From assembly GCA_050948865.1 (NCBI GenBank), contig JBMNEQ010000003.1, positions 3,147 to 67,146 of the forward strand: 64,000 bases of DNA. Direction: 5' to 3'. Under the pieces are notes generated by a model that did no database searches, was not told where the DNA came from, and saw only the letters and a program-made list of their open reading frames with translations. The translations under genes were made by a program, and so were the position numbers. This DNA is from Bacilli bacterium. GTDB taxonomy: Bacteria > Bacillota_I > Bacilli_A > RF39 > UBA660. Below are positions 406 through 59,718 of this stretch, piece after piece. How positions within the stretch are numbered: position 1 is the first letter of the stretch; every line of letters begins with the position of its first letter.

Positions 406-412
406 ATGTTTA

Positions 413-640
413 TAGCGTTGATGAGGAAGAGTAATATTAATACTATTTAAAAGAGAGTTAGGATGGTGGAATCTAACAATAAAGGTTAATATGAAAAACA
501 CCTTGTAGCTACTTACCGAAAGATAGTAGGCTAAGTCGGAAACCTCCGTTATCAGATTAAAGATGAGTGATCATTTTAATGATAAATGGGGTGGCACCGC
601 GGAATATAGTTTCGTCCCTTCTAGGGAGAAACTGTTTAAA
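413..640 (+). promoter_or_regulatory. T-box riboswitch-like leader with a probable Asn specifier.
   Basis: aaatggggtggcaccgcgg at 584-602 closely matches the T-box consensus AAUUAGGGUGGNACCGCG. AGAGAG at 452-457 fits the Stem I GA motif. Candidate specifiers AAC at 475-477 and AAU at 478-480 are each followed by A. A hairpin at 606-630 (agtttcgtccc...gggagaaact) followed by guuuaaaa is a candidate terminator. Confidence 0.55.
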
Positions 641-642
641 AG

Positions 643-718
643 GCCTAATTAGCTCAGTTGGTAGAGTACCCGGCTGTTAACCGGATCGTCGTAGGTTCGA
701 GTCCTACATTAGGCGCCA
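643..718 (+). tRNA. tRNA-Asn (anticodon GTT)
   Basis: 76 nt. Acceptor gcctaat/attaggc, anticodon loop ctGTTaa, T-arm ggttcgagtcc, encoded CCA. Confidence 0.9.
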
Positions 719-723
719 GATAA

Positions 724-799
724 GCCTGATTAGCTCAGTTGGTAGAGTACCCGGCTGTTAACCGGATTGTCGTAGGTTCGAGTCCTACATCAGGCGCCA
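724..799 (+). tRNA. tRNA-Asn (anticodon GTT), second copy with 3 substitutions
   Basis: Near-identical to the first copy. Acceptor gcctgat/atcaggc, loop ctGTTaa, CCA encoded. Confidence 0.9.
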
Positions 800-814
800 T
801 TAAGAAGGTAAATA

Positions 815-842
815 AACAGTAAGAATTCTTGCTGTTTTTTTT
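815..842 (+). terminator. Rho-independent terminator
   Basis: Hairpin aacagtaag-aatt-cttgctgtt followed by a T8 run. Confidence 0.7.
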
Positions 843-863
843 AATAAATAAAGGAGGATTTAA

Positions 864-1157
864 ATGGGATTAAATAAAGAAAGAATAAAAGATTATGCCG
901 CTAGTTTATTTTTTAAATTAGAGGAAGAAGAATTAGAATTAGTGGAAAAGGATTTAAAAAGGATTGAAGAGTATGAAAAGATAATTAATAAAGTAGCTCA
1001 TCTTGAAGAGGTAGAACCTTTAGCTTTTCCTTTTTCTTTAAAGGATAATACTTTTAGAGAGGATGAAGTTAAGGAAATATTATCAACTAAAGAAGCTTTA
1101 AAAAATGCTAAAGAGGTAGAGAATAATGAAATAAGGATTCCTAAGGTGGTGGGATAA
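864..1157 (+). CDS. gatC: Asp/Glu-tRNA amidotransferase subunit C
   Basis: 97 aa, GatC-like (conserved REDEV near the C-terminus). RBS aaaggagg upstream. Directly precedes gatA. Confidence 0.8.
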   Translation: MGLNKERIKDYAASLFFKLEEEELELVEKDLKRIEEYEKIINKVAHLEEVEPLAFPFSLKDNTFREDEVKEILSTKEALKNAKEVENNEIRIPKVVG

Positions 1158-1158
1158 G

Positions 1159-2493
1159 ATGAAATATTTAGATTTAACGATTGAAGAACTTCATTCTTTA
1201 ATAAAAGAGAAAAAAATAACAGCAATGGATTTAATTAATGAATCATTAAAAAGAATTGAGAAATACCAAGAAGATAATAATCCTTTAATAACAGTTTTAA
1301 AACCAGCAGGGCTTATTCAAGAAGATTCTAGTTATTTAGCGGGAATTCCTTATGTATTATCTGATAATATAACGACGAAGGGAATTTTAACAACTGGTTC
1401 TTCTGATTTATTAAAAGATTATATTCCTGTTTTTAATGCTACTGTAGTAGAAAAATTAAATAAAGAAAAGGCTCTTTTAATGGGGAAAGCTATATTAACG
1501 GAGCTTGGTTTAAATATTGAAAATAATGAAAATTTTATCAGTGGGGCTGCTTCTTCAGTTTTGTTAGGAATGGTTTCTTTTGCCCTTGATTCTGATACGA
1601 CGGGTTCAGTTCGAAAGACAGCTGCTTTTCGGGGGATAGTTGGTTTTAAACCTACTTATGGATTAGTTTCTCGTTTTGGGTTAATGCCTTTTTCTTCTTC
1701 TCTTGATCATATTGGTTGTTTTACAAAAAAGGTTAAAGATTTACCTTATATTTTAAATGCTATTAAAGGTTATGATGAAAAAGATTCGACAAGTTTAAGA
1801 AACGATAAGATAGATTATATATTACAATTAGATGATAATGTTAAAGGGAAGAAATTATTTTATTTTAAAGAAATGATGGAAGAAGGGGATCAAAAGGTTT
1901 TAGATAACTTTAAAATGGTTCTTAAAAAGTGTAAGAAGTTGGGAATAATAGTGGAAGAAGTTTCAATTAATAAAGCTCTTTTAAAAGCATTATCTCCAGC
2001 AACTGTTATTATTTCTTTAGCGGAAGCTGCTTCTAATAATGCTAATTTAACGGGACTTAATTTTGGTATTCGTGGTCAAGGAAATTCAATCGATGATCTT
2101 TTGATTGATGCTCGTTTTAAAGGTTTTACTTCTTTAACTAAAAGTAAATTTATTATTGGTCATTATGTTTTACAAAAGGAAAAGAAAGAAAAGTTATTTT
2201 TAAATGCTCAAAGGATTAGAAGAATGATTGTGGAGAAAATGAATGAATTATTTTCTTCATATGATGCTTTAATTTTACCTTCTTCTAATGGTTTTAAAAA
2301 AGATGATGATCATCTTCTTGATAGTCATTTAGTAATTGGTAATTTAGGGGGTTATCCTAGTGTTTCTCTTCCTAGTGGAAATAGTCCTTTTAGTATTAAT
2401 ATTACTGGTCCAATAAAAAAAGATTTAGAGGTTTTAAAGTTGGCTTTGGCTTTAGAAAATGAATTTAATCAAGGGGGGGATCAAGATGTATAA
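1159..2493 (+). CDS. gatA: Asp/Glu-tRNA amidotransferase subunit A (amidase family)
   Basis: 444 aa with an amidase-signature region (SGAASS...DSDTTGSVRKTAAF). Operon position between gatC and gatB. Confidence 0.8.
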   Translation: MKYLDLTIEELHSLIKEKKITAMDLINESLKRIEKYQEDNNPLITVLKPAGLIQEDSSYLAGIPYVLSDNITTKGILTTGSSDLLKDYIPVFNATVVEKLNKEKALLMGKAILTELGLNIENNENFISGAASSVLLGMVSFALDSDTTGSVRKTAAFRGIVGFKPTYGLVSRFGLMPFSSSLDHIGCFTKKVKDLPYILNAIKGYDEKDSTSLRNDKIDYILQLDDNVKGKKLFYFKEMMEEGDQKVLDNFKMVLKKCKKLGIIVEEVSINKALLKALSPATVIISLAEAASNNANLTGLNFGIRGQGNSIDDLLIDARFKGFTSLTKSKFIIGHYVLQKEKKEKLFLNAQRIRRMIVEKMNELFSSYDALILPSSNGFKKDDDHLLDSHLVIGNLGGYPSVSLPSGNSPFSINITGPIKKDLEVLKLALALENEFNQGGDQDV

Positions 2494-3910
2494 AGTGGTA
2501 ATTGGATTAGAGGTTCATTGTGAATTAAAAACAAAAGCGAAAGTTTTTTCTTCAGCTCCTAATTATTATAATAAAATACCTAATGAGAATATTGCTCTTG
2601 GTGACTTGGGATTTCCTGGAACATTACCAGCAGTTAATAAAAAAGCTGTGGCTTTGGCTTTAAAAATGGCTTTAGCTTTAGATTGTGAAATTCCTAGAGA
2701 ATTATTATTTGATCGAAAGAACTATTTTTATCCTGATTTACCAAAAGGATATCAAATTACTCAAGTAACTAAACCTCTTGGGAAAAATGGAGTTTTAATA
2801 GTTAATGTTGAAGGTATTGATAAAGAAGTTCAAATTAAACAACTTCATTTAGAAGAAGATACTGCTAGTTTAGATCATTTTGATGATTATTCTTTACTTG
2901 ATTATAATCGTTCTGGAGTTCCTTTAGTGGAAATAGTTACGGAACCCTGTTTACATAGTAGTAAAGAAGTTTTAGCCTTTTTAGAAGCTTTAAGATCAAT
3001 TTATCTTTATTGTGATGTTTCAGAAGCAAGAACGGATCAAGGACAAATGCGCTGTGATGTTAATGTTTCTTTAATGAAAGAAACAGATCAAGAATTAGGG
3101 ACTAAAGTAGAAATGAAAAATATTAATTCTTTTAATAATGTTAAAGATGCGATTGAATATGAAATTAAAAGGCAAACAGAATTATTAAATAATAATCAAA
3201 AGGTAATTATGGAAACAAGAAGGTTTGATGATGATAAAAGAAAAACTTATAGTATGAGAACAAAGGCAGAAGCAGTTGATTATAAATATTTTATTGATCC
3301 TAATTTACCACCAATTGATTTACCTTTAAATTTTATAGAAGAAATTAAAAAAACTATTCCTAAACTGCAATATGAAAGAATTAATATTTATATGAAAGAA
3401 TATAACTTATCTAGGTATGATGCTACTATTTTAGTTAAAGAAAAGGAGATTGCTGATTATTTTGAAGAAGCGCTTACTTATACGAAAAATTATCAAACAT
3501 TGGTTAATTGGATTAACGGGATCATTTTAGGTCATCTTAATAAATATGAATTATCTATTAAAGAACTATTTATCACTCCGAAAATGTTAGTTGAATTAAT
3601 TAGTCAAGTAGATGGTGGTTTTATTTCGATCAAACAAGGGAAAAAGGTTTTATATGAATCTTTAGAAAAAGGGAAAGCTCCCTTAGATATTATTAAAACT
3701 TCTAATATATCTCAAATAACAGATGAAGATCAAATAAAAGAGTTTGTTAAAGAAGTTTTAGAAGAAAATGAGAATCTTATTTTAGAATATAAAAATGGTC
3801 GAAATAATGTTTTAGATTATCTGATTGGTCAAATTATGAAAAAATCAAGAGGGAAGGCTAATCCAGCTTTAAGTTCAAAAGTTTTAAAGGAAGAAATAGA
3901 AAAAAGATAG
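2486..3910 (+). CDS. gatB: Asp/Glu-tRNA amidotransferase subunit B
   Basis: Likely start at the internal ATG 2486 (MYKVVIGLEVHCEL), the typical GatB N-terminus, with an RBS aagggggg upstream. The gatB ORF overlaps the 3' end of gatA. Confidence 0.85.
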   Translation: MYKVVIGLEVHCELKTKAKVFSSAPNYYNKIPNENIALGDLGFPGTLPAVNKKAVALALKMALALDCEIPRELLFDRKNYFYPDLPKGYQITQVTKPLGKNGVLIVNVEGIDKEVQIKQLHLEEDTASLDHFDDYSLLDYNRSGVPLVEIVTEPCLHSSKEVLAFLEALRSIYLYCDVSEARTDQGQMRCDVNVSLMKETDQELGTKVEMKNINSFNNVKDAIEYEIKRQTELLNNNQKVIMETRRFDDDKRKTYSMRTKAEAVDYKYFIDPNLPPIDLPLNFIEEIKKTIPKLQYERINIYMKEYNLSRYDATILVKEKEIADYFEEALTYTKNYQTLVNWINGIILGHLNKYELSIKELFITPKMLVELISQVDGGFISIKQGKKVLYESLEKGKAPLDIIKTSNISQITDEDQIKEFVKEVLEENENLILEYKNGRNNVLDYLIGQIMKKSRGKANPALSSKVLKEEIEKR

Positions 3911-36177: not shown

Positions 36178-37926
36178 ATGAAGTTAAATAAAGAAACAAT
36201 AAAAGATATTCGAAATAAGGTAAATATTGTTGATGTTATTGCGGAATACCTTCCTTTAGTTCAAAAAGGGAAAAACTATTTTGCAGTCTGCCCTTTTCAT
36301 GATGATCATAATCCCAGTATGAGTATTTCTCCTGAAAGACAAATTTATACTTGTTTTGTTTGTGGGGCTTCTGGAAATGTTTATACCTTTTTAATGGAAT
36401 ATGAACAAATATCCTTTTTAGAGGCTGTTAAAAAGGTTGCCGCTAAAGTAGGAATTTCCCTTGATCTTGGTCAAAAATATCAAAAGAAAGTTAATCAAAA
36501 AGAACAGTATTTATACGATATTTATGAAATAAGTAATAAGTTTTATCAAAATAACTTAAATACCAAGCCAGGATTAGAAGCTAAAAAGTATTTAAAGGTA
36601 AGAAAAATAGATGAAGATGTAATTAAATATTTTCAAATTGGTCTTTCTTTAAAGGGAATTTCTTTATCGAAAGTTTTAAAAGAAAAATTTAAAGAAGAAG
36701 AAATTGAAGAAAGTGGTATTTGTTCTTTAAGTTCTAAAGGACTTTATGATGTTTTTATTAATAGAATTATGTTTCCGATTTGGAATTTAGATGGACAAGT
36801 TATTGGTTTTAGTGGGCGCATTTATTTAGATGATCAAGATGCCAAATATATTAATTCTAGGGAATCAAAAATCTTTAAAAAAGGACAATTACTTTATAAT
36901 TATCATCAGGCTAAAGAAGAGGCTAGAAGAAAAAAGCAAATTATTATTGTGGAAGGTTTTATGGATGTTATTGCTTTATATAAAATAGGTTTAAAAAATG
37001 TTGTTGCTACTATGGGAACAGCGATAACCAAAGAACAAGCTTCTTTAATAAAAAAAACTGCCCTTAATATTATTTTATGTTTTGATGGTGATGAAGCTGG
37101 AGAAAGAGCGACTCTTAGTTGTTTAGAAGAATTAGTAAAGCTTGATTTAAAACCACAAATTATTCGTTTACCTAATAATTATGATCCTGATGATTATATT
37201 GAAGAAAAGGGAAAAGAAAGCTTTTTATCTTTATTAGAACAATCTCAAACAGGTTTAGATTTTAAAATGGCTCTTTATAAAAAGAATAAGAACTTTCAAA
37301 ATGAAGAAGATGTTTCTGCTTATATAAATTTAGTTTTAGAAGAGTTAATTAGTATTGATGATAAGGTCGTTAAAGATGTAATTTTAAATAAATTAACTAA
37401 AGAAACTAATGTTTCTTTGGGGACTTTAAATAGCTTACTTAAAAAAAGGCAATCTAAAAAAGGAAAAAAGAAATTTACAATTATTTCTAAAACTAAAAGA
37501 AGATTAAATAAATATGAACAAGCAGAACAAGCGATGCTCTTTTATATGTTAAAAGATGAGGGAGTTATTAAAATGTTTAAAAATAATTATTGTTATTTAG
37601 CAAAGACTAATTATCGTTATTTGGCTAATGAAATAGGAGAGTTTTATTATGAAAATGATTATATAGATTTAGCTGATTTTATTACCTTTTTGGGAGAAAA
37701 AAAAGAATTAGTAAATGTTTTAGGCGATATTTTAAAATTAAACCTTCCAGAAAAATATACCAAGGAAGAAATAACTGATTATATAAAGACTTTAAATGAA
37801 GGTATAAAAGAAGCAGAAATTGAAAGATTAACTAAAGACTTTCAAAAAGAAGTTGAACCTATGATAAAAGCTGAAATTGCTAAAAAGATTATTAATATTA
37901 AAAGAGGAGTGGATATTAATGGTTGA
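36178..37926 (+). CDS. dnaG: DNA primase
   Basis: CHC2 zinc finger [13 protein letters not shown]...CFVCGASG. Toprim EGFMDVIAL. Confidence 0.9.
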
Positions 37927-39004
37927 TGAAATAAAAACTTTTGAGGAACGAAAGAAAACTTTAATTAAAATAGGTAGAAATAAAGGTTATATAACTTTTG
38001 AGGAATTAGCGGATGAATTAAGAGGTTTAGATTTAGATAATGATTCTTTAGATGAATTATATAATTCTTTTCAAGAATTAGGGATAGAAGTAATATCTAA
38101 TGAAGATGAAGATGATGATGATAAAGAAAGTAGTAAAGAAATTAAAGGAGATTTATCTGTTCCTAAAAATGTAAGTATTAATGATCCTGTTAGGATGTAT
38201 TTAAAAGAAATTGGAAGAATTAGTTTATTAACTTTAGAAGAAGAATTAGAACTTTCTAAAAGAGTTGAAGAAGGGGATGAAATTGCTAAAAACACTTTAG
38301 CTGAAGCTAATTTACGTTTAGTTGTTAGTATTGCTAAAAGATATGTAGGACGTAATTTATCATTTTTAGATTTAATTCAAGAGGGGAATATTGGTTTAAT
38401 GAAGGCTGTAGAAAAGTTTGACGCTAGTAAAGGTTATAAGTTTTCTACTTATGCTACTTGGTGGATTAGACAAGCGATAACTAGGGCTATAGCTGATCAA
38501 GCAAAAACAATTAGGGTTCCTGTTCACATGGTAGAAACTATTAATAAATTAAAACGAATTCAACGCCAATTAACATTAGAATTAAATAGAGAACCAAAAG
38601 AAGAAGAATTAGCAGAAAAAATGGATTTAACAGTGGAAAAGGTTCGAGAAATATTTAAGATTGCTCAAGATCCTTTATCTTTAGAAACACCAATTGGAGA
38701 AGAAGAAGATTCTCATTTAGGGGATTTTATCAAAGATGTTTCTAATTTAACTCCAGAAGAATATGCTATTAATGAAGTTTTAAAAGATGAAATTTCTAAT
38801 GTTTTATTAACTTTAAATGAAAGGGAAGAACAAGTTTTAAAATTAAGATTTGGTTTAGAAGATGGAACTTGTCGCACTTTAGAAGAGGTTGGTAATATTT
38901 TTGGTGTAACTAGAGAAAGAATTAGGCAAATAGAAGCGAAAGCTTTAAGAAAACTTAAACATCCTTCTCGTTCAAGAAAATTAAAGGATTATTTAAGTGA
39001 TTAA
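37919..39004 (+). CDS. sigA: Primary RNA polymerase sigma factor SigA/RpoD
   Basis: Regions 2 to 4 are canonical ([62 protein letters not shown]). Likely start ATG 37919 (MVDEIK) with RBS aagaggagtgg. Confidence 0.9.
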
Positions 39005-52046: not shown

Positions 52047-52436
52047 TGAAAAACCTGATAGTAAAGCTACAGTTAAAAGAATGACTATTAAAAGTTTTGA
52101 TTCCTTATCAAAATTTGATAATAACCTTGGAGAAAGATTATTATCAAGATTAATGAAAAAGAAATATATCGGACAGTAGATATTTTAAAGGGAAAGATCA
52201 TTAATTAATTTTCAAATTAATCATATGATAAAGCTGATATATTATAAAAGGGTAAGAGTAAACCTTGTATTTATATAGGTTAAGCCTTGTTTTTTGTTTT
52301 TTTAACTGTCAAACTCGGAAAATAATTAAATATAAATACTTAAATAAATTGGTAAAACTTACCAAGTAAAAACCGTTGTAAAATCTTGACACACAATGCT
52401 TTAGGTGCTATCTTTATGATAGGAGGAATTAAAGAT

Positions 52437-53471
52437 ATGGGTGGTATGTTTAAGGTTCAAAAACAAGGTTTTACTTTAATTGAATTACTAGCAGTAATAG
52501 TTATTTTGGCTATAGTCTTGGCTATAGCTTTACCGTCTATTACAGGATTAATAGGAAATACTACAGAAAGAGCTTTTTTAATGGATGCAAAAATGGTAAT
52601 AAAAGCAATAGACTATCAACTTTTAGAAGGTTATGATTTAGAAAAAGAACCAATTAATGATGGAATTAATTTTGAAGAAGTACTAAATCTAAGTGCTAAA
52701 AATTATGAAAGTGTTAGTGTATCACTTGATGAAAATGATGAACCATATGTAATGTTAGTAGGTCAAAATAAATGGGAAGGATTAACCGTTTGTGGAACTT
52801 TTAAAGATATGAAGGTAGGGCAAACGGAAGAAATAGTATGTGAGGTACCGGAAGATAATTTTATTTGTGGTGAGGATACAATTTTACATGGTGGATATTC
52901 TTATAAAACAGCAAAAATAGATAATCAGTGTTGGTTTGCGGAGAATTTAAGGTATACAGATTATAAAGATGAAGGAGGAAAATCTTGTTTAGAGAAACAA
53001 TTTTATTCTGAAACAAAGGCTTGTGCTTCTCATACAAAAGATACGGATGGAAAATGTGTAGGCTATTGTAATTGGGAAGGTGAGGAAGTATTATATCAAT
53101 GGGAAGCGATTTTTGGTGATAAGCCATTAATAGAAGAAAGTCAAGGATTATGCCCATTGGGATGGCATATACCAAGTAAAGATGATTGGGAAGTTTTAAT
53201 TGATGGAAAAAGTGATGTTGGTAATAAATTAAAAGCAGGGGGACCTTTTTGGGATGGTAGTAATCAATATAAATTTAATGCTTTACCTGTGGGTGCTCGT
53301 GAATATGATTCAGGATATCTTACAGTGGTTGGTTCAAATTTAACATGGTGGTCTTCCACATCAAATAATTTAAGTGCTTGGGTTTATTATGTTGAAACAG
53401 ACACTTCAGAAATTAAATTCCAGACAGCTGGTAAAGATTATGGCTTTTCAGTTCGTTGTCTTAAAAATTAA
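52437..53471 (+). CDS. Prepilin-type protein: pilin N-terminal module fused to a C-terminal FISUMP (Fibrobacter succinogenes major paralogous) domain
   Basis: M(GG)MFKVQKQG|FTLIELLAVIVILAIVLAIALPSITG. The first roughly 150 aa are about 75% identical to the 8913 pilin. C-terminus CWFAENLRY...LCPLGWHIPSKDDWEVL...WWSST...GFSVRCLKN matches the FISUMP/TIGR02145 pattern. Confidence 0.7.
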   Translation: MGGMFKVQKQGFTLIELLAVIVILAIVLAIALPSITGLIGNTTERAFLMDAKMVIKAIDYQLLEGYDLEKEPINDGINFEEVLNLSAKNYESVSVSLDENDEPYVMLVGQNKWEGLTVCGTFKDMKVGQTEEIVCEVPEDNFICGEDTILHGGYSYKTAKIDNQCWFAENLRYTDYKDEGGKSCLEKQFYSETKACASHTKDTDGKCVGYCNWEGEEVLYQWEAIFGDKPLIEESQGLCPLGWHIPSKDDWEVLIDGKSDVGNKLKAGGPFWDGSNQYKFNALPVGAREYDSGYLTVVGSNLTWWSSTSNNLSAWVYYVETDTSEIKFQTAGKDYGFSVRCLKN

Positions 53472-56106: not shown

Positions 56107-56637
56107 CTGAATCCCTCTTTCTATTATTATATTATACTAAAGAGGAAAGAAAGTAAAATTAACTTTTTGAAAAAAGATAATTTAGATATATGTTTAAATG
56201 ATATTAAAATGTTAGACAGTGAAGGATAGATAATATTAGTATATGAAAAATATAGATATTTTATTGATGCAAAAATTAAATATTAGATTTTTATAATTTA
56301 ATTTATGTGTGTTATAATTTTAAATGGGAGGCCAAAATGTTGAAAAATATTTTTATATTCTTTTTCATTATCATTCCTCTTTGTGATTAATTATAAATTA
56401 TGATTCCAATGATGATTGTAAAACGTATGAAGAATATTTAAAATTTACTAAAGAATGGTTAACTAATTGTTATAATTGGAGTAAGAATAGTGCTCGTTTG
56501 TTATTAAATATTCCTTTAGATAAAAATAAGTTTGGTCATCAAAGTGTTGGTGCTGATATAACTTTAATAGCAAAAAAGATTGGTATCTAGTCAGTCTTTT
56601 TTTATAAAGTAATAAAAATAGGAGTAGATGATTTATA

Positions 56638-59600
56638 ATGGTTAAAACTTTTAATTTATCAGAAGAAGAAGTAAAAATGTATTTTAATCAATTACAAAAA
56701 GGTGATGAAAAAGCAAAAGAAAAAATAATTGAACATTATTTTTATTTAATTGAAAATGAAGCGAGAAAGTTATCTTTTAATTCTTTTTTAAGAGATGATT
56801 TAATTGGAGAAGGGCACTTTGGATTATTAGAGGCGATCAAAGGATTTGATCTTACAAAAGAAGTTCCCTTTTCCTTTTTTGCTAGTCTTTGTATAAAAAG
56901 AAAAATGTTTGCTTATTTAAAAAAAACTGATAAACAAAAGTCAGAGATTAGTTTAGAAGCTCCTTTGAAATATTTAGATAATGAGACAATAAATCTTTTA
57001 AATTATTTAGAAGATAAAAAAGTTAATATCGAAAAAGAAATAGTTAATCAAGATATAAATGAGGAATTATATAAACGTTTAGATTATCTTAGTCCTTTAT
57101 ATAAACAGGTTATAACTTTGCTTTATGGTTTAAAAGGAAATAAGCGGCATACTTATCAAGAAACGGCTTTAAAGTGTGGTTTAACAAAAAAACAAATTGA
57201 TAATATGCGTATTGTTATTTTAAGAACTTTAAGAAAAAGTTTTGAAGATTATTCTATAAAAGAAATAGAGGCTACTAATAATCTTTATAAGTATTTTTCT
57301 AATCTTAATTTTAAACAATTTATCTTTTTATATAAAGAACAATTTAATAATTTAAACCAAATTGATCAAGATGAAATAAAACGCTTTTATAATGTTTATA
57401 ATCAAGATTTGTTGAAACTTTTTTCTTCATTAGAAAAAATAGAAAAACAAATTAATAAAGAAGCTTTTCCTTTTTTAACAGCTCCTTCAAAATTAGGAAA
57501 AGATAAATTAATTCCCATTTATGAAACTAATAAGGATAGTTTTACTGAATATCATCAAAATATTATTGAATATTATTTATATAAAAATAAAGATATAGAA
57601 GTTATTTCTAAAGAATTTAATAAATCAAACAGGATTATTAAAAGCACTTGGAATAGTTTAAAAACAAGTTTAGAATTAAAATATTTTAATATTGATAAAA
57701 AGAATTTAGATCAAGAAACTGTAACTTCTATATTAAATAATCCTAATTATATCATTAGTGATTGGCATCAAAAAATTGTTGCTTTATATTATGGAATTGG
57801 TTATAAAAGAAGATATCAAATTAAAGAGATTGCTTCTAAATTAAAAGAACCTTATTTAAAAACTCATGATTCTTTAATGTATATGGAAGAAAAGATGAGA
57901 GAATTATTATATGGAGTTTCCTATTCTGGAGAAAAAAAAGATAATAGTAATTTAATTTCTTATATTACTAATAATAATTATAGTTTTTCTAAGCAGACTA
58001 GAGAAATATTAAAACTATATTTAATAGAAGGATTAAGTTATGAAGAAATTTCTAAAATATATCAAATAACAAAACCCCAAGTTTCTAATATTGTTACTGA
58101 TGGTATTAGAAAGGCAAACTTTTATCGTTTTGGAATTGTAAAAAAGTTAATTGTTTTAGAAAATGATTTAGAAGATTTTTTTCAAGTTTCCAATTTTTCA
58201 TATAAAGAAAAGGAAATTATTAAAGAAAGATATCTTTCTTTAAAAGAAATTAAAGAACTTCTTAAAGAGAATAAAATTTCTCGTTTTGCGATGGAAAAGT
58301 TATTTTTTCAATTTGAAAAGAATTTTATTAAACATAAATATAAAATCAATTTAAAAAAAGAAGATTATCAAAAAGAAATTGCTTATCATCAAACAGATAC
58401 TGTTTTAACAAAAGAGGAATTAAAATTAATTAGTTTATTTTGGGGAATTGCTTCTAAATATAATAGTACTGGTCGAATATTTTCTTTAAAGGAAATAAGA
58501 GAAACATTAAATCTTTCTTCTAGAGTTTGCAATAATTCTTTTAACAGGGCGGAATTAAAGTTATTAAAGAAGAAAGCCGGATTATTAGATTCTTTATATG
58601 GAATAATGAATAAAGAAGCATTGGAGGAAGTTTTTAAGGATAAAAGGGTTCCTTTAAATAATAAAGAAATAGAGATTTTAAAACATTTAAAAGAAATAGA
58701 TAATTATTCATTTTTATCTTCTAAAGATTTAGCTAAAAAATATCAAATGAGTGAAAGTAGTATTTTAAGAGTTTATCAAAGGGCGATATTAAAGATTAAG
58801 CAATATGAATTAGGAGAAATTGAAGGTAAATATAATTATGAGGAAGATATTTTACCTAATAAGCGTTTTTTCCCTAAAGATTACCGACTGGTATTAGAAG
58901 CTAAATATAAAAATGATTTATCCGCTTTTAAAATTTCTCAGTTAACAGGTGAATCAATTGATCAAGTACGTTATAAATTAAAAAGAATTAAGTTTCATTT
59001 AGCAGGTATCTTAAAGAAAGATGAAAATATAACTAAATTTGATTATGATTTAATGGAGAAATTAGTTTTAAAAAAGGATTTAGTTTTATATGGTAAAAGA
59101 AGATTAAAATTAAAAGCTTTTAAGATGTTTTATGGTTTAAATGGTTATCAAAGACATTCTTTAGTTGAAATTGTTCAAAATTTAAACTTAAAGATAGAAC
59201 CTAAAACTTTAAGTTCTCATATTAAAGAAGTAGAACTAGCAATAGAAAAATATAAAATAGGAATTAGAAATCCAAAATGGTTTACTTATTCTCAATTATT
59301 AGATTATTATCATCATAATCAAGATTATTTAAATTTTGGGGAGAAAGAAAAGATTTTAACCTTTTTAGAAAAACAAAAAAGATATTTAGATGATAAAGAT
59401 ATTAATGCTCGATATACTAATAAAACTTTACCTTTTAATCTTAAATATAATTTAGCTTGTTTTTTATATGGAAAAACAATTGATTTTAATACTATGAGTC
59501 TTTTAGAATTAGAAAAAGCTTTTCAGAATAAAAAAATAAGTTATTCTAATAAACTTTTATTAGAAAATTATTTGGGTAATTCATATAAAGATATAATTAA

Positions 59601-59718
59601 TAATAATACTAAAAGAAAACTATTGAAAATAATGTCTAAAATATATGAAGAAAAAAATAAAGATCAAATTAAAGAAAACCAGACTAAAGTTAAAAGTTTT
59701 AGAAAAAAAGAAAATTAA
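56638..59718 (+). CDS. Giant sigma-factor-like protein: one sigma-70 region-2-like module followed by about 7 tandem sigma-70 region-4-like HTH repeats
   Basis: N-terminus DLIGEGHFGLLEAIKGFD...FSFFASLCIKRKMFAYL resembles the sigma2 domain. Repeats include LYKQVITLLYGLKGNKRHTYQETALKCGLTKKQIDNMRIVILRTLRK, IVALYYGIGYKRRYQIKEIASKL, ILKLYLIEGLSYEEISKIYQITKPQVSNIV, LISLFWGIASKYNSTGRIFSLKEIRETLNLSSRV and KAFKMFYGLNGYQRHSLVEIVQNLNL. Confidence 0.6.
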   Translation: MVKTFNLSEEEVKMYFNQLQKGDEKAKEKIIEHYFYLIENEARKLSFNSFLRDDLIGEGHFGLLEAIKGFDLTKEVPFSFFASLCIKRKMFAYLKKTDKQKSEISLEAPLKYLDNETINLLNYLEDKKVNIEKEIVNQDINEELYKRLDYLSPLYKQVITLLYGLKGNKRHTYQETALKCGLTKKQIDNMRIVILRTLRKSFEDYSIKEIEATNNLYKYFSNLNFKQFIFLYKEQFNNLNQIDQDEIKRFYNVYNQDLLKLFSSLEKIEKQINKEAFPFLTAPSKLGKDKLIPIYETNKDSFTEYHQNIIEYYLYKNKDIEVISKEFNKSNRIIKSTWNSLKTSLELKYFNIDKKNLDQETVTSILNNPNYIISDWHQKIVALYYGIGYKRRYQIKEIASKLKEPYLKTHDSLMYMEEKMRELLYGVSYSGEKKDNSNLISYITNNNYSFSKQTREILKLYLIEGLSYEEISKIYQITKPQVSNIVTDGIRKANFYRFGIVKKLIVLENDLEDFFQVSNFSYKEKEIIKERYLSLKEIKELLKENKISRFAMEKLFFQFEKNFIKHKYKINLKKEDYQKEIAYHQTDTVLTKEELKLISLFWGIASKYNSTGRIFSLKEIRETLNLSSRVCNNSFNRAELKLLKKKAGLLDSLYGIMNKEALEEVFKDKRVPLNNKEIEILKHLKEIDNYSFLSSKDLAKKYQMSESSILRVYQRAILKIKQYELGEIEGKYNYEEDILPNKRFFPKDYRLVLEAKYKNDLSAFKISQLTGESIDQVRYKLKRIKFHLAGILKKDENITKFDYDLMEKLVLKKDLVLYGKRRLKLKAFKMFYGLNGYQRHSLVEIVQNLNLKIEPKTLSSHIKEVELAIEKYKIGIRNPKWFTYSQLLDYYHHNQDYLNFGEKEKILTFLEKQKRYLDDKDINARYTNKTLPFNLKYNLACFLYGKTIDFNTMSLLELEKAFQNKKISYSNKLLLENYLGNSYKDIINNNTKRKLLKIMSKIYEEKNKDQIKENQTKVKSFRKKEN

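Follow-up and report, generated by a model that had tools for sequence, protein, structure and literature searches.

The window analysed here, a 64,000-nucleotide stretch of contig JBMNEQ010000003.1 from a Bacilli bacterium (assembly GCA_050948865.1), carries on its forward strand a gene for a giant sigma-70-family protein of 1026 residues. The gene runs from its ATG at 56638 through its stop codon at 59718 (56638..59718), as defined by the open reading frame (ORF) listing and by colinear homologues. It is flanked by a divergent magnesium-translocating P-type ATPase (MgtA, 1092 bits) and by HtpG (660 bits), and a Shine-Dalgarno-like AGGAG (56620..56624, forward strand), read from the sequence, stands 13 nt 5' of the ATG. 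The coordinates, the position between mgtA and htpG, and the gene's own ribosome-binding site were therefore as a first, sequence-only reading of this DNA had given them, the coordinates to the nucleotide. NCBI labels the protein merely "sigma-70 family RNA polymerase sigma factor." We found that its first 205 residues are a complete sigma factor of the SigK/SigE type and that residues 206 to 1026 are a conserved, all-helical tail, in which eight modules (B to I) are descendants or homologs of sigma region 4 and three more (A, J, and K) are remoter copies. The protein belongs to an undescribed family of giant sigma proteins of about 1000 to 1230 residues in uncultured, AT-rich, small-genome gut Bacilli.

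The same protein is present, identical, on a 787,845-bp JGI contig (JGI 3300053716) and in two independent Logan assemblies, and a relative of 1032 residues shares 43% identity with it. The GC content is 20 to 23% in the region of the gene and 20 to 26% around it. A scan for promoters and terminators around the gene returned 36 promoter-like sites where 30.6 were expected, and it returned no terminator; at 22% GC, this is uninformative. No common motif was found between the upstream regions of the gene and of the relative P0002, whose context differs (tRNA genes lie upstream of P0002) and which has an AGGAG 8 nt 5' of its own ATG. Between mgtA and the giant sigma gene lies a gap of 530 nt (56107-56637) with only tiny ORFs. 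One of these, a 30-residue frame at 56498-56590, has a longer stop-free reading that resembles what is left of a protein's C terminus and may stem from a decayed gene. Recoding of UGA as Trp was considered as the cause of the gap and rejected, as the long ORFs are intact under table 11.

The N-terminal sigma factor consists of sigma-2, a disordered linker, and sigma-4. Sigma region 2 (residues 7-100; 56656..56937, forward strand), the core-binding and -10-recognition part, was identified with Pfam (Sigma70_r2 at residues 31-98, 29.4 bits against a cut-off of 24) and NCBIfam and was modeled with a predicted local distance difference test score (pLDDT) of about 80 to 88. The linker that follows (residues 101-137; 56938..57048, forward strand) is predicted to be disordered, with pLDDT below 50 over residues 97-142. 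Canonical sigma region 4 (residues 138-205; 57049..57252, forward strand) lies at the normal distance after sigma-2 and forms four helices in the AlphaFold model (138-148, 153-163, 173-180, and 184-202); in the family consensus, its region 4.2 shows the classical pattern TLEEIA ... KaLkKIK. Over the whole protein, Pfam Sigma70_r4 scored 39.6 bits and the sigma-70 superfamily model TIGR02937 scored 76.6 bits (cut-off 42.9). Residues 7-203 aligned with the nearly full-length NCBIfam models of SigK, SigE, and SigH (E values of 1e-26 to 1e-14), the three alignments ending at residues 199-204. When the whole AlphaFold model was compared with the PDB by Foldseek, the top matches were all sigma factors, the first being Bacillus subtilis SigH with 29% identity. 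The sequence-only reading had taken the N-terminal 100 or so residues for a sigma-2 domain, citing a likeness to SigA of the same window. The motifs on which that likeness was based, DLIGEGHFGLLEAIKGFD and FSFFASLCIKRKM, do occur verbatim in the giant protein, as do their counterparts in SigA, and the assignment to sigma-2 held up in Pfam; its extent had to be revised, since a whole sigma factor is present through residue 205.

The giant protein is not the housekeeping sigma factor. An ordinary housekeeping sigma exists besides it, because a canonical dnaG-sigA pair (36178..39004, forward strand; assigned with NCBIfam and given here for context) is found in the same window: dnaG scored 450 bits (cut-off 283.6), and sigA, which follows it at 37877..39004, scored 567 bits with the RpoD model PRK09210, slightly under the cut-off of 572, and 389 bits with RpoD_Cterm (cut-off 354). 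The giant protein, in contrast to a primary (group 1) RpoD/SigA factor, is without regions 1.2 and 3 (no Pfam match to Sigma70_r1_2 or Sigma70_r3), and its gene is at the mgtA-htpG locus and not behind dnaG. Nor is it an extracytoplasmic function (ECF, group 4) factor, as Sigma70_ECF matched with an E value of 0.032 and 14.6 bits against a cut-off of 21.1, and the best full-length matches were SigK, SigE, and SigH. With the SigK and SigE equivalog or subfamily models, the scores were under every cut-off (PRK05803, 93.5 against 252; TIGR02846, 88.8 against 298.65; PRK08301, 84 against 339), and the N-terminal pro-sequence that is the target of SpoIVFB or SpoIIGA is missing: the alignment opens at protein residue 7 against positions 30-41 of the SigK and SigE models, so that there is no room for a pro-peptide. 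In the modules of the tail, the LuxR/GerE model GerE reached 11.6 to 15.2 bits against a cut-off of 23.5, a likeness at the level of the fold only.

The sequence-only reading had placed at least seven tandem repeats resembling sigma region 4 after sigma-2. With a single sequence as the query, only canonical region 4 and module D were above the Pfam sigma-4 threshold, the other modules falling below it, so that this part of the claim could be confirmed by Pfam for two units; no Pfam family covered the tail in scans of the whole protein and of slices. In addition, phmmer with canonical region 4 against its own protein found nothing significant besides itself, the gene has no DNA-level tandem repeats matching the protein modules, and only 11 of 80 modules taken from ten proteins matched Sigma70_r4 at E < 0.01. 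The remaining modules are recognizable only via profiles or structure. We therefore cut slices of the tail from a ten-member family alignment, compared them as profiles with hhalign, and repeated the comparison with 107-sequence profiles. In the ten-member alignment, canonical region 4 matched slices C to I with probabilities of 78 to 96% and hhalign scores of 30 to 47, while the maximum score in 64 control comparisons with reversed slices was 18.3. With the 107-sequence profiles, C to I matched one another at 84 to 98%, except E with I (61%), and matched region 4 at 77 to 96%. Over both comparisons, the hhalign scores of C to I with region 4 ranged from 27 to 47.

A second line of evidence came from a stacked-module hidden Markov model (HMM) trained solely on the tail modules of eight other family members. 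This HMM recovered the canonical sigma-4 of the 1026-residue protein, which it had not seen, at 19.5 bits and found seven units of at least 8 bits; the maximum over 200 shuffles was 7.4 bits. Among natural PDB sequences, the stacked profile matched YlxM/UPF0122 (7e-9) and sigma-H region 4 (2e-6), then SigW, SigK, and SigA region 4 and GerE. Its top PDB match (E value of 2e-19) was the "CAP REPEAT" 8vd6, a computationally designed repeat protein (PMC12339374), which we treated as an artifact because only a 24-residue helix-turn-helix (HTH)-like stretch was matched, five times, each with an independent E value of about 0.6. The AlphaFold models agree with the profiles: pLDDT was 78 for the whole protein and 82 for the tail alone, with a predicted template modeling score (pTM) of 0.58 for 814 residues, and a four-helix pattern (helices of about 10, 11, 8, and 19 residues) appeared nine times in both models, at residues 138-202, 288-349, 359-425, 437-497, 508-568, 574-646, 659-724, 734-792, and 803-873. 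Taken together, the profile comparisons, with controls far below them, and the models bear out both the number of repeats and the architecture, one sigma-2 followed by many sigma-4-like units, that had been read from the sequence.

The modules differ in how much of region 4 they retain. Module A (residues 207-284; 57256..57489, forward strand, as for all modules) is helical and a remote relative of the repeats; it matched C, G, and K at 92, 90, and 93%, respectively, and was not similar to canonical region 4 (4%) in the deep-profile comparison. Module B (residues 286-352; 57493..57693) is a divergent sigma-4-like four-helix unit (288-297, 304-315, 320-327, and 331-349 in the AlphaFold model) that matched C, D, E, and G at 86 to 94% and scored 18.4 bits with the stacked HMM. 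Module C (residues 357-428; 57706..57921) matched canonical region 4 at 96% (E value of 1e-8 over 71 columns). Module D (residues 435-500; 57940..58137) is the best-preserved sigma-4-like HTH, with a Pfam Sigma70_r4 match of its slice at an E value of 3.9e-7 and 29.9 bits (cut-off 24.1) and an hhalign probability of 96%. The weakest sequence signal was that of module E (residues 506-571; 58153..58350), which had just 1.8 bits with the stacked HMM, 83 to 84% to region 4, and 98% to D and H. Module F (residues 572-649; 58351..58584), in which the loop connecting helices b and c is longer, scored 26 bits with the stacked HMM and 93 to 95% to region 4. Module G (residues 657-727; 58606..58818) keeps a basic recognition helix and matched region 4 at 94 to 96%; with Pfam, its slice had weak matches to HTH_6 and DnaD_N. 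Module H (residues 732-795; 58831..59022) begins with a near-invariant DILP.LKYF, in which D737, P740, and F745 are conserved in 89 to 99%, and matched region 4 at 86 to 92% and Pfam Sigma70_r4_2 at an E value of 0.026. Module I (residues 801-876; 59038..59265), acidic in most family members, matched region 4 at 77 to 78% and C, D, and G at 96 to 97%. Modules J and K (residues 880-1012; 59275..59673) form a helical C-terminal cap with pLDDT of 65 to 88 and are remote relatives of the repeats (K matched G at 96% and A at 93%, and J matched A at 89%).

Conservation is not confined to the sigma factor. The most conserved 15-residue window of the protein is the end of module D (486-500), and sigma region 2.2 (53-67), the start of H (732-746), and two windows in G (666-680 and, in the recognition helix, 711-725) are also among the most conserved; windows in D, H, and G are thus conserved as strongly as the core-binding sigma region 2.2. 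The recognition-helix consensus is SIrRRYQRAIL.IkKY in module G and rISNIITDGIRKIDfYRF in module D, while modules B, C, E, H, and I show no conserved basic residues over the opening half of this helix. The order and number of the modules are fixed, and every position has its own conserved signature, which indicates that the array is ancient and has not been homogenized. Near-invariant aromatic and acidic motifs (FYRFGI, EIEG, DILP.LKYF, and FDFDYY) mark the junctions between modules, and in the tail model pLDDT is 85 to 93 across most inter-module linkers; these two features suggest that the arm is largely rigid and not a string of beads. The segment between sigma-4 and the tail (203-211) has pLDDT below 50.

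The family is sizeable, counted here in clusters at 50% identity. A word-indexed search returned nine relatives, and an exhaustive profile search with the tail alone returned 291 representatives at E < 1e-3 and 171 at E < 1e-30. In most of these 171 clusters, the match is end to end; positions 2-805 of the tail profile match residues 216-1025 of the 1026-residue protein, which has the colinear tail of about 800 residues, with modules A to K in order, after a complete sigma factor. Scanning of GTDB species genomes gave 21 loci, all in uncultured Bacilli, "Tenericutes," or mislabelled gut metagenome-assembled genomes (MAGs), with Candidatus Coprovivens among them and rabbit, mouse, and chicken as hosts. 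A look at the phylogenetic distribution had been proposed as a check on the sequence-only reading. No relative was found in a scan of viral contigs, and PADLOC and PHROGs gave no match on the tail.

Most members are longer than the 1026-residue protein, at 1150 to 1250 residues, with the tail beginning near residue 410. These long forms have a SigA-like N terminus with regions 1.2, 2, 3, and 4 (31 to 42% identity to the SigA of the window and E values of 1e-52 on RpoD-type models), and behind region 4 they have another segment, some 130 residues long. The clade of P0001, P0002, and P0031, which includes the 1026-residue protein, has a SigK/E-like N terminus, P0002 scoring 219 bits on the SigK subfamily model. 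Because this clade is nested among the long SigA-like forms on a neighbor-joining tree of the tail, one tail has been attached to two sigma classes, and replacement of the N-terminal sigma factor is the simplest reading of the pattern. Sigma-2 is present in 107 of the 116 members of at least 900 residues, and the exceptions are mostly 5'-truncated calls together with a small group that has another N terminus.

Several loci depart from the common arrangement. At L014:6876-9752, a 958-residue relative matches tail positions 228-799, has no Sigma70_r2, and has a different N terminus. In a mouse-gut MAG (L018:6592-10250), a 315-residue SigA-like sigma ORF and an 890-residue tail ORF are separated by 38 nt, which reflects either an error of sequencing, a pseudogene, or a genuine version made of two polypeptides. 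Tandem full-length paralogues occur at L010:814-10400, where a DDE transposase gene lies between the pair, and at L011:760-8082, and one MAG has two giant sigma copies on separate contigs (L001 and L015). Across the 21 loci, no partner gene is conserved beyond a five-locus subclade, which has obg upstream and an unidentified conserved ORF of about 470 residues downstream; dnaG is not beside the family gene at any of the loci, and no separate anti-sigma gene is conserved next to it.

In every solved holoenzyme, the beta-flap carries sigma-4 at the -35 element. Since the tail follows sigma-4, starting at its C-terminal end, the arm would have its origin at the promoter's upstream edge. We hypothesize that the giant protein is a functional alternative sigma factor whose arm extends the promoter contacts upstream, a reading that we regard as plausible although short of probable. 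The sigma-2/sigma-4 core would bind the RNA polymerase core and read the -10 and -35 elements as usual, and the tail would form a largely rigid arm of fixed length. Modules D and G are the candidates for contacting upstream DNA because they are the most conserved and keep a recognition helix like that of sigma-4.2, and the other modules, in which the conserved basic residues are lost, may be spacers or surfaces for protein contacts. The reader or activator for upstream elements would then be built into the sigma factor itself. That the tail is coupled to sigma function is indicated by the retention of sigma-2 in 107 of 116 long members and by the presence of the same tail on two sigma classes. 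The completeness of the sigma factor, the fixed module order, the conservation of windows in D, G, and H at the level of region 2.2, and the separate housekeeping sigma in the window also speak for the proposal.

A number of observations weigh against this proposal. The sigma-2 of the 1026-residue protein is diverged, with 93 bits to SigK against 219 for P0002, and its region 2.4 motif has changed from ENEI to KRKM. In the recognition helix, clearly conserved basic residues are limited to canonical sigma-4 and G, with partial conservation in D, and the median net charge of the modules is near neutral (0 to +2; -2 for module I), so that DNA binding by the arm is not assured. For the same reasons, the multivalent binder of -35 elements entertained in the sequence-only reading is unlikely in a form that uses all the modules, and there is room for readings of the tail as a regulatory domain or a scaffold. 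The rigidity of the arm is judged from pLDDT and pTM only. Finally, relatives without sigma-2 (L014 and the group of P0045, P0046, and P0065) and L018, with sigma and tail in adjacent separate ORFs, indicate that the tail may not strictly need to be in cis.

The loss of conserved basic recognition-helix residues in most modules fits protein-protein rather than DNA contacts, and one form these could take is regulation in cis. The modules would fold back on sigma-2/sigma-4, or mimic sigma-4 toward the beta-flap or another partner, and so keep the sigma factor inactive until a signal releases it. Modulation of sigma activity by fused C-terminal domains is well established (SnoaL_2 in sigma-J, PMC5766207; SigG1, PMC7730460), sigma mimicry in PhyR offers an analogy, and the gene has no conserved anti-sigma gene next door. 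However, an inhibitor of 820 residues and 11 modules is costly, at about 0.3% of the 788-kb contig, and yet is strongly conserved and colinear; the Pfam scan of the giant protein found no sensor-like domain; and the low-confidence linker at 203-211 (pLDDT < 50) parts sigma-4 from the tail, the model output giving no confident contact. We consider autoinhibition unlikely.

A scaffold is, in our estimate, distinctly unlikely as well. Here the degenerate HTH modules would recruit factors (regulators, RNA polymerase subunits, or further polymerases) to promoters, and DNA would be read by canonical sigma-2 and sigma-4 only. The separate signature of each module, their invariant order, the near-neutral net charge, and the junction motifs, which resemble interfaces, are all in keeping with such a role, but these motifs are equally explicable as intramolecular packing, no conserved neighbor gene points to a partner, and D and G retain their sigma-4.2-like recognition helices.

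The very AT-rich DNA around the gene and the many HTH modules could instead point to a chromosome-associated protein that binds DNA at multiple sites or organizes the nucleoid and merely descends from a sigma gene, and the diverged sigma-2 and the relatives that have none could be read the same way. We think this highly doubtful, since core-binding region 2.2 is among the most conserved segments over 107 members, 92% of the long members keep sigma-2, the N terminus has been swapped for another complete sigma factor and not lost, and the modules are not strongly basic. An artifact, in which an assembly chimera or a frame open by chance in AT-rich DNA poses as a long gene, has only the unusual length to support it and is already refuted, because the identical protein recurs in three independent assemblies, a 43%-identical relative of 1032 residues and about 170 colinear clusters exist, and the models are confident (mean pLDDT 78-82); the ORF is real.

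Returning to the proposal of a sigma factor with an upstream-reaching arm, a bolder form of it can be stated, which we advance as speculation and think somewhat unlikely: a rigid, sigma-4-derived HTH array of about 800 residues would read or wrap tens of base pairs of upstream DNA, or dock factors, and so replace separate activators in gut Bacilli with strongly reduced genomes, which would amount to a mode of promoter recognition that had gone unnoticed. If this were true, its grafting onto two sigma classes would make the arm a portable "promoter-extension cassette."

Two other features of the window, outside the giant sigma gene, deserve mention. A T-box leader (409-622, 142 bits) is directly followed by two tRNA-Asn(GTT) genes (643-718 and 724-799), a hairpin with a T-run (about 818-845), and, after the hairpin, ORFs that were read by eye as gatC (866-1156), gatA (1159-2493), and gatB (2459-3910), the whole spanning 409-3910. 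A T-box right upstream of tRNA genes and an Asn/Gln transamidation operon is an unusual arrangement. Beside mgtA lies a 361-residue ORF (52386-53471) whose FISUMP (Fibrobacter succinogenes major paralogous) domain scored 97 bits; such a domain was not expected in the MAG of a Bacilli bacterium with a small genome.

Few bacterial proteins have been studied as thoroughly as sigma factors, whose domain plan, from sigma-1.1 to sigma-4, is regarded as settled. A family of about 170 clusters departs from this plan by joining to a full sigma factor eight to eleven extra modules derived from sigma-4, and the tail has been retained in genomes that appear strongly reduced (the contig with the gene is 788 kb). 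Should the arm prove to read upstream DNA or to recruit partners, it would offer organisms with few regulators a new route to promoter selectivity and would stand as a rigid tandem-HTH array found in nature. Its hosts are uncultured gut Bacilli, yet the protein is directly testable in vitro.

The sequence-only reading knew of no characterized protein with this architecture, and our literature search likewise turned up no sigma factor described as having tandem sigma-4 modules; to our knowledge, none of the known tandem HTH arrays is fused to a sigma factor. The closest known proteins are SigK and SigE (PRK05803, TIGR02846, PRK08301, and TIGR02835), with which residues 7-203 align over nearly the whole mature models (E values of 1e-26 to 2e-23) and to which P0002 is closer still, at 219 bits against the SigK subfamily cut-off of 252 and with the FATYASRCIENEILMYLR motif present. 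SigK and SigE have no 820-residue tail, whereas the giant protein is without their pro-sequence, its alignment starting at model position 32, and no link to sporulation was found. Sigma factors with fused domains (ECF41, ECF42, ECF56, Mycobacterium tuberculosis sigma-J, and Streptomyces tsukubaensis SigG1) carry SnoaL_2, tetratricopeptide repeat, or zinc-finger extensions of about 100 to 200 residues; in the giant protein, the extension consists of about 11 sigma-4-derived HTH modules, and the core, unlike that of ECF41, ECF42, and ECF56, is not of the ECF type. YlxM/UPF0122 (1xsv and 1s7o), KorA/TrfB (5clv), FocB (3m8j), and LuxR/GerE are single domains, usually dimeric, in small proteins or response regulators and, unlike the giant protein, are neither arranged in tandem arrays nor fused to a sigma factor. 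PhyR combines one sigma-like domain with a receiver and works with NepR and EcfG as an anti-anti-sigma decoy, in contrast to the giant protein, which has no receiver domain and no conserved partner genes. As judged from its sequence, the giant protein is a member of the sigma-70 family that stands outside the SigK/SigE equivalogs, group 1, and the ECF factors.

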